From Cladosporium halotolerans (Eukaryota): a DNA stretch of 64,000 nucleotides. Location of the stretch: positions 558,001 through 622,000 of the forward strand of contig NW_027191461.1 of NCBI RefSeq assembly GCF_011745625.1. The letters run 5' to 3'. Within the stretch, counting starts at the first letter, position 1. Every line of letters begins with the position of its first letter. This document shows, one piece after another, positions 34,570 through 38,467 of the stretch. The notes under the pieces are model-generated. The model did no database searches. It was not told where the DNA came from and saw only the letters and a program-made list of their open reading frames with translations. The translations under genes and the position numbers were made by a program.

Positions 34570-35994
34570 GTGATTCTGGAGGAAGCATTTGCGGCATGAT
34601 GCACGATGTTACGACCACATCGCCCTACGCGCGGTCAGGCGGCTGTGACAGGGCTTAGCGAGGCGTTTGGCGACTTGGAACGAGACAGGTATGGTGTATG
34701 GATTGGTCTTTTCTCAATGAGATGCAGCAGAGTGGACTCTCGGATTTCTGGCCGCGAGTGCCGGGTTCAAAGATTCTGGCGCATTGATCGTCACATGTCT
34801 CGTGCGCTCTGAAGATGGGAGTGTGATGGCTGAAGCATTCTGCCCTGCACTCGAAGCCAGACAAACACGATGCGTAGAAGTGTCGAAGACAATGCCATAT
34901 CGCCCGTCAACAACATCATGATCTGCATCCGCTTCCACCCTGAGGTGAATCCAGCAAGACGAAGCCTAGGTAGGAAGGAGGCCAGACCCAAGCGTGCGGA
35001 ACACCAAGTTTCCGGGACCAGTAAAACTTGCCTAAAACGATTGAGATGCGCGATTGAGGGACGAGAGTACGGTCTGGTGACCACTGATCAACAACGTCTG
35101 CAAGGGTCCCTGCTCGAGCCCTGCCTGGTGAAAGTGGGATCTACCGTGAGCCCTGCGAGCGTTGCGTCGTTTCTCAAACCTGAAGCTCCATTCACATGTT
35201 CTTCGCTCGTGTGTGTTGGATCAACCGTGTAGCACAAGCAGTCCGATAAAATGCCAATAATACAACACCCACATGTGCGTTTATCGTCTGCAACCAGTGC
35301 ACATCACTGCATGTGCCGGGGTGCGCCACATTTGGAACAATATTCGGCTAGGCCGACGCCCCAAGCGGCGGCGATGCCAGGACGGCGCGTCACCAGAATC
35401 AGTATCCCTGTCGCGCGCATCCTGGAGCTCGTCCTTGATCGCCAGCACTGCGCACTCCTCCAGGCCCCTACTATCTTTAGCCCACCGGCCATACATGATA
35501 CCGCTCACCACGAACATCGCCTTTTCGCCAAGACGGCAACAATCTTGCTGGCACGCATTTTATCGCTGCGCCGTCGTCGCCGCGCGCCACCTGCCGCCGG
35601 CCCAGAGCGGCTTGCCCTCTTTGTTGCCGGCCGCCGTCGCTTCTGGCTGCTTTAGCCGAGACCCCCAGGACCCCCAGCAGAGCACCGACTGCGACAGCGA
35701 CATTCTGGCGTCACACACGCAAGCGCAGTGCCTTTTACGGCATGATCTGATCGCGACCCGGCGACAAGAGCAATAGGGCTAAGATCCGCATTGGGCGACT
35801 ATTGCGACGACCAGCCGCGCTCACGCCGCCCGAGCACGCATTGGCCTTTCCACCACCCGAGAAACTGGACCTGTGATCGGCAATCATCTGTAGGCGACCA
35901 CCGAGGCATACTCATGCACCATCTTTTCGGCGCATAACCACCGTGATTCGCGCAAGGGCGCCTAGGCCGGCCTCTGCGCCATCAATCGCCTACC

Positions 35995-38467
35995 CTGGCG
36001 GCCCAGGAAAATCAGCCTGCGTACTCGCAGGCTGATCTTGCTCCCGCCTATGCCTACCCGTTGACACCCAGCACCTCTGGAGCCCCGACGATCTATCAGC
36101 CTAGCTTTGAGCCAGATGTACCCGCTGCCCAGAAGCGCAAGACCCCACCGCATCAGACCGGGACAAAGTCAAGCAAGAAGGTCAAAAGAGTCGGGCCCAA
36201 GGCAGACGTCCAGTCTGACCTGATGAACGCCGGCGATGGCGACAACATTGGCGAGGGAAGCAAGCCAAAGCGTGTCCGAACGGGTTGTTTGACCTGCCGA
36301 GAGCGTCACTTGAAATGTGACGAAGAGTGGCCGAACTGCCAGAACTGCCGTAAGAGCAGTCGCGAATGTAAGAGAGGGATCAAGTTGAACTTCATCGATA
36401 CATGGTGCGGCCGCCCGCCGCAGCTCGTGACCTTACACGGAACCAAAGACTGGAGAGTAGAGTTTCTGGACGAATCTAGAGAAATCGCAGACGAGTACGT
36501 CGGAGGCACACATGTATATCCTCCATTGGTACAAGCTGCGCAGGTTACACAAACGCGCGACCGTTCTCGTGAGGCTGCGAGTTCATACACAATTCCAGGC
36601 CCGAGCGTATTACCACAGCAGGCTCTACCACCGATACAAGGGATTCTTCCTAATACACAACAATCTTACATGGCTCCGGCACCTTTGCAACAGCCGGATA
36701 TGGGAAGTATGTTCGAGCCCGGCCGTCAAGAGAAATACCAATTCTCGATGCAGCCTCCAAACACGAATGCTGCACGAAATCCCTCGTATGCGTCAACGAT
36801 GCAAAGCGGTACCTTGTCCGCTCCTATGAACGATTGTCTTCCCATGGAACAGGATCTCAATACGGACGAAAACGAGAAACGCGAGTCTTTGAGCACTGGA
36901 GAGGAGACTCTATTCATGCAAGTATTCGTGGAAGAAGTCGGCGTTTGGATGGACAGCATGGATCCGTTGAAGCATTTCTCGCGCCTCTTACCGTTCCATT
37001 CGCTCTCGGAGCCGATGCTCTTGAACGCTTTCCTTGCTTGTGGCGCGCGACATCTTACACTCATCAACCCTGTATACACGGAAGAGAAGGCCTTGCACTA
37101 CTACGACACGGCGACGCGCTATCTCCTCAAGGCCCTCCAGAACCCCAACCGCGACACTGTCATCTGCGCCACCACTGCCGTCATCCTCAATGTGTATGAG
37201 ATCATGTCTGAACGCGCGCTGCAACGCATGAATCATATCGCTGGAGCTAGAGCGCTGATCAAAGAATGCGGGTGGAATGCCAGGGCGACCGGCATCGGAG
37301 CGGCTTGCTTCTGGTTAAACGTTGGGCTTGAAGTCCTGAGTTGTTTGCACTTTAATTGGCAGGTGGCTTGGAATCCGGACGACTGGCTGATCGATATGGA
37401 CCTGACGCGAGAAGTACACAACGGACGGGAGGAATCTTGGACGCATCGCATGCTCTACATCATTGCCAAGGTCTGCAATTTCCGCTCAACCATGCCTAGA
37501 TCCATAGAGCCGAATCATCGAGACGAGCAAATCCGGACACAGCAGCGCTACGAGGAGTGGACGCGGCTGAAAGGCATGGCTGATGCCTGGAACGACGCAA
37601 TCCCTAGGACCATGCACCCAATGGCTTACGTGAACCCATTCCAGACGAGCTCGAAGTCGTGTTTTCCGGAAGTTTGGTTGATCAAGCGGACTTCAATTGT
37701 GGCGAGGCTGTTCTACCACACTGCAATGTTGCTCTTATCGCAAATCAATCCTTACATGAGTGTGACAGTGCCAGGCGAGATGGCGGACATGCAGAGCAGA
37801 CACGCGCAGATGATCTGTGGTATTACTGCTCATGTCAAAGATCGGTAGGTCTTATACCCCCACGCCACCAAATTCTTATACTGACAGCCTCTGCAGCGGC
37901 GTCGCTTCTATCGCCATCCGCTCGCTCGCTCACGCGGGCGAAGTCCTCACTGACCGTCGGGAGCAGGAGGAGGTAATGCAGATCTTCGAGAAAATCAACA
38001 AGGAGACCGGTTGGCGCATAGGGTTCGTGTATAAAGAGCTCAAAGAGAAATGGGGATGGGCGGAGGAACCCTCACCCGCACAAATGGCGCAGACCCACAC
38101 CGCAGCCCAGCGCGAAAAGGAGCGGCAGGAGCAGGAGCAGGAGCAACAGCTACAGCAGGCTCAGCGACACCAGCAGCAGCAAAGCATGCAGCTACAGCAG
38201 GGCTTCGACTTCAACGCGCAGAACGTCGCGCAGAACATGTCGCTGCCTGCTGTCCAGCTCACTCCTCCTCAACACCAGCCGCCACCACAGCAACAGCCAC
38301 CGGCAGGCGCAGCAGGCAAACAGAACAAAAAGCCGCCTCCGGGTATTCCTAATCCGATGTACGCGAAGGCAGACTTCAACCTGCCGCAGCATCCTTACCA
38401 GAACTTCTACGTGGCACCGAGCTCCGGGTACGGGCATGCGCAGGGCGGCTACTGGTGGAACTCGTAG
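35995..38467 (+). CDS. Zn(II)2Cys6 transcription factor (Fungal_trans_2 type); start probably CUG 35995, first in-frame AUG 36223
   Basis: RTGCLTCRERHLKCDEEWPNCQNCRKSSREC; intron 37845-37896; Gln-rich C-terminus. Confidence 0.9.
38121..38200 (+). repeat. Coding CAG/GAG-rich low-complexity tract (QE/polyQ)
   Basis: CAGGAG repeated units and CAG runs encoding QEQEQEQQLQQAQRHQQQQ. Confidence 0.7.

Follow-up and report, generated by a model that had tools for sequence, protein, structure and literature searches.

Where does translation of the Zn2Cys6 transcription factor gene at this locus begin? In the window (the whole 64,000-nucleotide stretch of DNA analysed here), the first AUG in the frame of this gene is found at 36223, in weak context. 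A first-pass annotation had observed that the frame remains open upstream of this AUG, back to a stop at 35944, and had proposed that translation starts at a CTG in ideal context at 35995. All of its coordinates were reproduced on re-reading the sequence (Table 1). The open frame was borne out and is free of AUG from the upstream stop to 36223, and the CTG, 76 codons before that AUG, does have A at −3 and G at +4. The predicted products are 806 aa for a long form and 730 aa for a short form.

Results

Identity of the protein

Matches to PF00172 and PF11951 both exceeded the cut-off and define a Zn2Cys6/Fungal_trans_2 transcription factor. Alignment over 555 positions gives 50% identity with a protein from Talaromyces stipitatus that is annotated as 'C6 transcription factor (ArcA), putative' and that the same tree places in its Eurotiomycete branch. 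The label 'related to regulatory protein for the arginine catabolic pathway' is attached to two members from Leotiomycetes. Other automatic labels on members are Adhesion and hyphal regulator 1 and UGA3. We describe the gene as ArcA-like; putative orthology to Aspergillus nidulans ArcA rests on database labels, the tree and 50% identity. Its own genome holds no close paralogue, the next match being 26%.

The bipartite nuclear localization signal (NLS) consensus consists of two basic residues, a spacer of 10–12 and three basic residues in five. The basic, NLS-like character first ascribed to the extension is consistent with a match to this pattern at residues 47–64 of the long form, and by the same pattern matching 17 of 25 extensions carry one.

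Table 1. Features of the ArcA-like locus (positions in the window)
Feature	Position	Strand	Remarks
5′ leader of ≥540 nt; no splicing in single spanning contig	35455..35994	+	run X1 record 3
AUG ORF, 93 codons	35495..35776	+	T at −3, poor context; within contig-covered stretch; absent from first-pass annotation
uORF MI-stop	35742..35750	+	G at −3
uORF MHHLFGA-stop	35914..35937	+	AUG 81 nt 5′ of CUG; poor context
In-frame stop TGA	35944-35946	+	16 codons 5′ of CUG; frame open from 35947
Putative near-cognate start CTG	35995-35997, context 35992..35999	+	cctacc-CTG-gc: A at −3, GC at +4/+5
Predicted N-terminal extension, 76 codons	35995..36222	+	coding constraint in 7 close loci
Predicted RNA hairpin, 11 bp	36011..36036	+	+17 to +42 from CUG; 5-bp core from +23
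Out-of-frame AUG ORF MPTR-stop	36050..36064	+	inside extension
Out-of-frame AUG ORF, 35 codons	36116..36223	+	ends TGATG, TGA overlapping AUG 36223
Basic motif, bipartite-NLS pattern	36133..36186	+	residues 47–64 of long form; pattern match only
First in-frame AUG	36223..36225	+	gacctg-ATG-a, C at −3, weak; opens 730-aa short form
Zn2Cys6 binuclear cluster, PF00172	36280..36372	+	E 1.3e-7
Fungal_trans_2, PF11951, best stretch	36967..37272	+	E 2.5e-9
Intron, 52 nt, GT..AG	37845..37896	+	skipped in 4/4 runs; donor, branch, acceptor read
Exon 2 through stop codon	37897..38467	+	sequence reading

The candidate start codon across orthologues

Orthologous DNA was taken from one metagenome scan as the best 80 of its 182 confirmed loci, a sample that leans to close relatives and includes no clear DNA of Sordariomycetes or Aspergillus. 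Within these 80, a start is present at the CTG column in 25 of 42 species-level clusters (15 CTG, 9 GTG and 1 ATG), while 14 have no such start and 2 are unclear. Clusters with a start span Dothideomycete-, Leotiomycete- and lichen-type lineages, so that alignment of orthologous loci, the check first proposed for this gene, finds both the extension and its start codon conserved. The −3 base is A in 23 clusters and G in 2, a conservation that, like that at +4, is partly circular because the candidates had been preselected for a purine at −3 and G at +4. Only CTG, GTG and ATG occupy the column, yet in these genes Leu is encoded by CTG 25% of the time and Val by GTG 28% of the time, and several CTG–GTG swaps are seen across the tree. 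A blind protein alignment placed the picked codon in the start column in 19–23 of 27 loci, not in all; L073 and L081, both in a divergent clade, were dropped as members because their picks failed it. In many loci the nearest upstream in-frame stop is as close as 10–20 codons, and 26 of the 27 picked loci lack an in-frame AUG between stop and candidate. Locus L019 has an in-frame AUG 92 codons farther upstream.

AUG versions also occur. Locus L024, in a nested lineage, reads ACC ACC ATG GCA at the start, with an N-terminus identical to that of the Extremus antarcticus model P0275. In L039 the AUG falls on the CTG column in 3/3 alignment modes. Eurotiomycete models (n = 44) begin with a Met 62–98 residues before the zinc cluster, 31 of them as MAS; their N-termini show marginal similarity to the extension (best E 0.007–0.06). 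In the 14 start-less clusters no extension was detectable within 1,200 nt, so it is dispensable in some lineages. An extension hidden by an intron in short-only loci was sought over the same 1,200 nt by profile search, and nothing better than E = 1 was returned.

The downstream AUG and two predicted isoforms

A Met 13–30 codons before the zinc cluster is present in 24/24 near-cognate clusters, with a purine at −3 in 8 of them, whereas only 5 of the 44 Eurotiomycete Met-long proteins have a corresponding residue. This difference points to two isoforms, an idea raised in the first-pass annotation. The CUG or GUG that many related fungi retain in the start column likewise suggests that both a long and a short protein are produced, which we consider likely.

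The alternative that survives best is that the CUG is the sole relevant start, AUG 36223 encoding an internal Met of one long protein that is scarce through its weak start. The low frequency of purines at −3 of the downstream AUG would be expected under this explanation; in addition, two out-of-frame AUGs precede AUG 36223 in this gene, and Eurotiomycetes seem to require the long form only. It accounts poorly for a Met that lies in a variable linker and is nonetheless retained in every near-cognate cluster while missing from L024 and most Met-long proteins, or for several lineages that have the short form only, with an in-frame stop 21–57 codons before the cluster. We judge it unlikely.

Coding constraint on the extension

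Across 7 close loci, dN/dS was 0.16 for the extension (75 codons) versus 1.1 directly upstream. Variable columns in the extension were distributed 23/17/63 by codon position, stops numbered 0 in the protein frame versus 11 and 22 in the other two, and orthologues differ in length without leaving the frame. A BLOSUM profile becomes positive at codon −1 to +2 around the CTG column. To judge from these alignments, the 76-codon stretch between CTG 35995 and AUG 36223, which had been described as protein-like, is under protein-level selection, and the constraint begins at the CTG, not 5′ of it.

The position of this onset bears on whether a real extension might be opened in another way, by a different near-cognate codon or by frameshifting or readthrough from the 35914 uORF. 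There are in-frame candidates (CTG 35974, TTG 36061 and ACG 36088), and in this species the uORF shares the frame of the transcription factor. All three codons are poor in context and not conserved, the uORF is closed by two stops and varies in frame among relatives, and constraint starts at the CTG column, making such an origin highly improbable. We assign a slightly smaller chance to an untranslated stretch, either leader or DNA 5′ of a downstream start site, conserved as RNA or DNA, with the protein starting at 36223. The downstream Met is the start in many database models, a predicted hairpin overlaps the best-conserved peptide motif, and some lineages lack the extension; three-base periodicity, the low dN/dS, a reading frame open only in the protein's phase, frame-preserving length differences and the existence of Met-started equivalents all argue for translation.

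Transcripts and splicing of the leader

Record 3 of run X1 is colinear over 35455–37843, and the only segment skipped is the 3′ intron, the sole intron seen, which is skipped in 4/4 runs. Pieces from X13 (35737–36090) and X5 (35709–36238) cover the leader without a joint, and run X6 lies outside it, so that leader coverage consists of one spanning contig and two partial runs. Because the contig is unbroken from 35455 through the leader, no upstream AUG exon spliced to the extension is seen in this material. Contigs do not mark transcript 5′ ends, and the true end of the leader may lie beyond 35455. Transcripts extend at least 540 nt 5′ of the CUG, which answers the concern that transcription might begin 3′ of 35995, although the contigs allow a second, downstream start site. 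Nine GT..YAG pairs could in principle bring in an upstream AUG, and the donor is non-consensus in 9/9. The candidate intron at 35890–35965 had already been reported to join no upstream AUG, and no consensus intron joins an AUG in frame. Intron-free, transcript-sized contigs from Leotiomycetes and Dothideomycetes (L027, L030–L032) have the same arrangement.

A spliced upstream AUG exon that feeds the extension and makes a non-AUG start needless is the least probable alternative, with hardly any weight in our view: position 35890 offers a donor-like GT and position 35965 an AG, and contigs lose rare splice forms, but the leader has no joint in three covering runs, no consensus intron supplies an in-frame AUG, the transcript-type contigs from other classes likewise show no in-frame AUG upstream, and conservation stops at a start-like context and not at an AG. 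With coding constraint, codon conservation and an unspliced leader pointing the same way, translation very probably initiates at CUG 35995, as originally proposed for this factor.

Upstream and out-of-frame AUGs

The four short AUG ORFs listed by the first-pass annotation as preceding AUG 36223 are all present, but those at 36050 and 36116 sit 3′ of the CUG, inside the extension. The case for several uORFs is weaker than first stated. An AUG occurs at −110 to −60 in 21/25 clusters, versus 0/25 and 2/25 in the flanking windows; it has a pyrimidine at −3 in 18/21, and purine at −3 plus G at +4 in 0/21. Frames 0, 1 and 2 are all represented among relatives. Comparison across loci thus indicates that the AUG at 35914 is the only conserved one of the four; what is shared is its place and its poor context, whereas frame, length and peptide differ. 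A conserved uORF peptide was rejected on varying frames and lengths and a pN/pS of 1.5 in the uORF frame. The 1-nt offset of this AUG relative to close relatives does not reflect an assembly error, there being no indel there in 3 covering runs.

The other ORFs find no such support. No positional enrichment was seen for the AUG at 35742 (bins covering −310 to −211 have an AUG in 7/23 and 6/25 loci, fewer than the 10 expected), and the 93-codon ORF shows no conservation in orthologous loci. In the bin containing 36050, 18/18 AUGs are in frame +1, and NAT/NAC is 18:9 versus 264:295 downstream (p = 0.05, in related loci whose counts are not independent); this AUG probably arises incidentally where a G follows a Tyr codon. 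The AUG at 36116 is absent in the six closest loci, and its TGATG overlap was rejected as a conserved reinitiation device since close relatives lack the AUG. With a single conserved upstream AUG of variable frame and length, the leader does not have the two-uORF layout of GCN4 and cpc-1 (short uORF1 plus inhibitory uORF2). Translational control of the gene, as first proposed, may operate.

A predicted hairpin near the CUG

The hairpin just 3′ of the CUG has a predicted energy of −20.6 kcal/mol, with z −8.5, or −4.0 against synonymous recoding. Its core pairs are retained in 14 close loci, and covariation was not above that of shuffles. Of 16 windows, the first one (54 nt) gives the lowest mean z (−0.90). 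A z below −1.5 is reached in only 9–10 of 27 loci. Five chosen orthologous CUG hairpins are weaker (−10.5 to −16.2 kcal/mol), and many distant loci have no hairpin at this position. Whether the hairpin promotes CUG initiation is, in our assessment, evenly balanced. It overlaps the best-conserved peptide motif of the extension. An upstream hairpin at about −28 to −13 was seen in three Leotiomycete loci and was discarded as not general (mean z −0.56, 5/27 below −1.5).

Discussion

Our best explanation, which we hold with considerable confidence, is that this ArcA-like Zn2Cys6 gene, from a mould of Capnodiales type, produces an mRNA read from two starts by leaky scanning, giving a long and a short protein. 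Scanning ribosomes would bypass the poor-context upstream AUGs, and some would start at CUG 35995, assisted by its optimal context and perhaps by the predicted hairpin. Their product would carry a 76-residue extension with a conserved aromatic N-terminal motif and the bipartite-NLS pattern. The remaining ribosomes would leak past the CUG, and some may begin at the weak AUG 36223 to make the short form.

A tentative addition is that the long:short ratio is regulated through the upstream AUG at −81 and start-codon stringency. More speculative, and on balance somewhat unlikely, is that the leader forms a conserved rheostat for a regulator of amino-acid catabolism, in which a poor-context upstream AUG, a hairpin-assisted CUG and a poor-context AUG set the ratio of a long, NLS-bearing activator to its short form. 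The short form would then differ in location or activity, and the balance would move with lower start-codon stringency or with eIF2-alpha phosphorylation, tying arginine catabolism to translation status. Lineages would be fixed in three states: both forms (CUG/GUG), long only (AUG) and short only (extension lost).

The phenomenon is known, in Neurospora cpc-1; the gene is new. No earlier description of this CUG start was found in the literature searched, whose coverage was incomplete, and the hairpin at +17 to +42, the bipartite-NLS pattern and the ArcA-like identity from database labels are additions made here. Gene models that start at AUG 36223 would omit the long protein. Many models in this family begin at an internal Met or at unrelated upstream Mets, and N-terminal tagging, complementation and domain work that follow them would miss 76–90 residues and a likely NLS. 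If the ArcA link is true, the gene offers a testable translational input to arginine catabolism.

In A. nidulans, arginine catabolism is activated by ArcA, which is specific to this pathway (Empel et al. 2001, cited in PMC4282371). The likeness lies in the identity to the ArcA-labelled T. stipitatus protein and the arginine-catabolic labels on Leotiomycete members; the difference is that Aspergillus-type members open the long form with Met, and this gene apparently with CUG. In mammalian extracts, START initiation at CUG is optimal with a downstream hairpin at +23 to +26 and declines when the hairpin lies closer than +17; the energy thresholds are −15.3 and −21.6 kcal/mol (Tidu et al. 2024, PMC11165317). 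The predicted hairpin described here resembles these in core position and energy, but the START values are mammalian, and orthologous hairpins are weaker or, in many distant loci, missing.

To our knowledge, established conserved non-AUG starts in filamentous fungi are few, with cpc-1 as the worked example. The product of that gene is a bZIP factor, and its two uORFs are of the GCN4 type. Several near-cognate starts are found 5′ of the inhibitory uORF, which they bypass; their use has been demonstrated in vitro and in vivo, and the N-terminal extension that they initiate has a dN/dS of 0.285 (Ivanov et al. 2017, PMC5487733). Our gene differs in having a single start, 3′ of one poor-context upstream AUG, which is AUG in some lineages while the extension is missing in others, and in being known from sequence comparison, where use in cpc-1 was shown experimentally. 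The two share the essentials: a filamentous-ascomycete transcription factor with a long leader and upstream AUGs, an extension under purifying selection (0.285 there, 0.16 here), and near-cognate codons that are conserved from class to class in a near-optimal context. To the cpc-1 example this gene adds a further transcription factor with unusually clean comparative evidence, in the form of natural CUG, GUG and AUG versions and lineages that have lost the extension.

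Conservation of a near-cognate start

Comparison of orthologous loci strongly supports a real and conserved near-cognate start at CTG 35995 in the ArcA-like gene. The first-pass annotation had proposed this start and suggested looking for conservation of the codon and its extension, and its coordinates were all right on re-reading of the sequence. The transcription factor frame is open from 35947, its first in-frame AUG (36223) has C at −3, and the in-frame CTG is flanked by A (−3) and G (+4). The ORF ends at 38467 and encodes 806 aa from the CTG or 730 aa from the AUG, with a Zn2Cys6 cluster and a Fungal_trans_2 domain. 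Among named relatives, a Cryoendolithus antarcticus protein comes closest (71%), so the host is a Capnodiales-type mould.

Features of the locus and its neighbourhood
Feature	Position	Strand	Remark
DEAD-box rRNA helicase	31156-33621	-	neighbour, ordinary
DnaJ-domain protein	33964-34569	+	neighbour, ordinary
11-bp hairpin	36011-36036		+17 to +42 from CUG, −20.6 kcal/mol; overlooked in the first-pass annotation
Intron, 52 nt	37845-37896		skipped in 4/4 runs examined
Glycerol-3-phosphate acyltransferase	39130-41592	+	neighbour, ordinary

Loci were drawn from one metagenome scan as the best 80 of 182 confirmed. The zinc-cluster motif was present in 65 of the 80, and 59 of these 65 either extended far enough upstream or contained a candidate; grouping them with the window gave 42 clusters at 95% identity. 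Within this best-80 set, a start at the same point was found in 25 of the 42 clusters (15 CTG, 9 GTG, 1 ATG); position −3 is A in 23 of them and G in the other 2. Such a start was missing from 14 clusters. Another cluster, the Eurotiomycete locus L039, has an AUG at the start point, and codon-blind alignment led us to discard two more picks (L073, L081). Because candidates had been picked from codons pre-filtered for a purine at −3 and G at +4, they were checked by codon-blind protein alignments. The window's CTG column contained the picked codon in 19, 20 and 23 of 27 cases in three alignment modes, with misses mostly one codon away, and it contained the L039 AUG in all three. CTG accounts for 25% of Leu codons and GTG for 28% of Val codons in these genes, so ordinary Leu or Val residues would not be expected to be fixed in this manner.

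On the core tree, the near-cognate start occurs on Capnodiales-type, other Dothideomycete, lichen-type and Leotiomycete branches, with more than one swap between CTG and GTG. Locus L024, with an AUG start and the N-terminus of the Extremus antarcticus model, is nested among CTG lineages. Loci with only the short form fall mainly on the Myriangium/Sphaceloma branch and its neighbour, with one further clade and one divergent clade. Eurotiomycete starts were read from proteins, except for L039; 44 database models begin with Met 62–98 residues before the zinc cluster, and their N-termini, aligned start to start, show marginal similarity to the extension (E 0.007–0.06). Upstream of the cluster, Sordariomycete-like sequences read as proteins (P0150, P0153, P0174, P0211, P0241, P0262) have a boundary of similar T-L-A / T-V-A type, and a Zalerion protein (P0202) has its Met start at that point.

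The extension is coding and colinear with transcripts

By the pattern of its substitutions, the extension codes for protein, in agreement with the earlier impression that the added codons look protein-like. No gaps were needed to align the 75 codons that follow the CTG between the window and the six metagenome loci nearest to it (among the best 80 of 182 confirmed). Pairwise dN/dS, pooled over pairs that are not independent, is 0.16; the linker that follows the zinc cluster has a similar value (0.19) and the core a lower one (0.03). The same comparison gave 1.1 for the 24 codons before the CTG. Variable columns are distributed 23/17/63 by codon position, and only the protein's frame is free of stops (0 vs 11 and 22). 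Among orthologous proteins, similarity extends upstream of the AUG and ends at a T-L-A, I-V-A or T-M-A point. In one locus (L076:2285–2530), an extension-like peptide begins at GTG GCG in another frame than the main ORF with no clear joining intron; a frameshift, a short intron or an assembly error is possible.

A spliced upstream AUG exon, which the first-pass annotation had named as a refutation of CUG initiation, was rejected on the contigs that cover the leader. A 3,263-nt contig from sequencing run X1 is colinear with 35455–37843 and spliced at the 3′ intron, and pieces from runs X13 and X5 cross the CUG region with no joint; run X6 does not extend that far, and such contigs are blind to transcript 5′ ends and rare forms. 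X1 and X5 were taken as RNA by guess, and the precision with which the intron is skipped argues for cDNA. An in-frame junction with an upstream AUG could be made by nine GT..YAG pairs, none of which has a consensus donor. In other classes, contigs of transcript size that carry no intron (L027, L030, L031, L032) have a GTG start and no preceding in-frame AUG. The L018, L024 and L025 contigs are without the intron at the HVKDR/GVAS junction that is present in the window and most close loci, a distribution that suggests loss in several lineages.

Two probable isoforms and upstream AUGs

Long and short isoforms are likely both made, as had been anticipated. All 24 near-cognate clusters (best 80 of 182 loci) retain a Met 13–30 codons ahead of the zinc cluster, vs 5/44 Eurotiomycete proteins whose long form begins with Met, and L024 has none there; the nominal p of 8e-14 for this contrast is overstated because lineages are related. 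Short-only lineages begin at this downstream Met. Its weak context (purine at −3 in 8/24) counts against two isoforms. In 17/25 clusters the extension matches a basic pattern of the bipartite type, a candidate NLS; the short form retains only basic residues beside the zinc cluster.

Of four upstream AUG ORFs originally described, only that at 35914 proved conserved. An AUG at −110 to −60 is present in 21/25 clusters (15/18 with close relatives collapsed), and flanking windows contain one in 0/25 and 2/25. A pyrimidine occupies −3 in 18/21, and none has optimal context. Frame, length and peptide differ among loci, and therefore the selected item would be the start event rather than the peptide. 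Conservation of the 35742 and 36116 AUGs was not found among orthologous loci, and AUG 36050 looks like a by-product of coding. At 35747, a C>A change in three runs leaves the MI* uORF intact and adds another AUG that overlaps it.

Leader structure

None of 300 synonymous recodings was as stable as the hairpin downstream of the CUG. Pairing of its 5-bp core is possible in 14/14 close loci, with two-sided changes at one pair, and its segment has the lowest mean z among those tested in 27 loci. Covariation across loci was not above shuffles, the stem overlaps codons for a conserved A-Y-x-Q peptide, and no hairpin is seen in many distant loci. AUG-bearing L024 has the weakest hairpin of seven folded, a set picked by eye in which a single case proves nothing.

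Just upstream of the start (35969–35981), a GGC-N6-GCC motif is kept in close loci and altered in L024, and the Leotiomycete loci L031, L032 and L063 have a 6-bp hairpin at about −28 to −13 from the GTG; over all loci, an upstream hairpin or motif was not significant. The extension-less loci L060 (~3–50), L071 (~2050–2100) and L042 (~415–460) share a conserved block of ~45 nt, some 400–450 nt upstream of the zinc cluster and with no common AUG noticed, which may be an RNA or DNA element of the leader.

A leaky scanning model and known cases

Leaky scanning most likely explains the two starts. Scanning ribosomes would bypass the poor upstream AUGs, part of them would initiate at the CUG through its context and probably the hairpin, and the remainder would get to the weak AUG 36223. 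After translating the short uORF at −81, a ribosome would not yet be ready to initiate when it met the CUG, 57 nt farther on, and could restart at the AUG. By analogy with the GCN4/cpc-1 paradigm, production would thereby tilt toward the short form, and starvation or stringency might have an effect.

The assignment as ArcA-like comes from database labels: a Talaromyces stipitatus member, 50% identical, carries the label 'C6 transcription factor (ArcA), putative', and the label on others reads 'related to regulatory protein for the arginine catabolic pathway', which may link the gene to A. nidulans ArcA. In A. nidulans, ArcA specifically activates the arginine catabolic pathway (PMC4282371, citing Empel et al. 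2001). Literature searches, chiefly of listings and of non-subscription papers, turned up no report that this gene or its family has a non-AUG start. Wei et al. 2013 reportedly list further Neurospora non-AUG candidates, and that paper or its supplement could already include the orthologue. Other papers mention further fungal genes with near-cognate starts (PMC7049704) and CUG initiation aided by a hairpin (PMC11165317). Among described cases, the closest to the CUG start is cpc-1 (PMC5487733).
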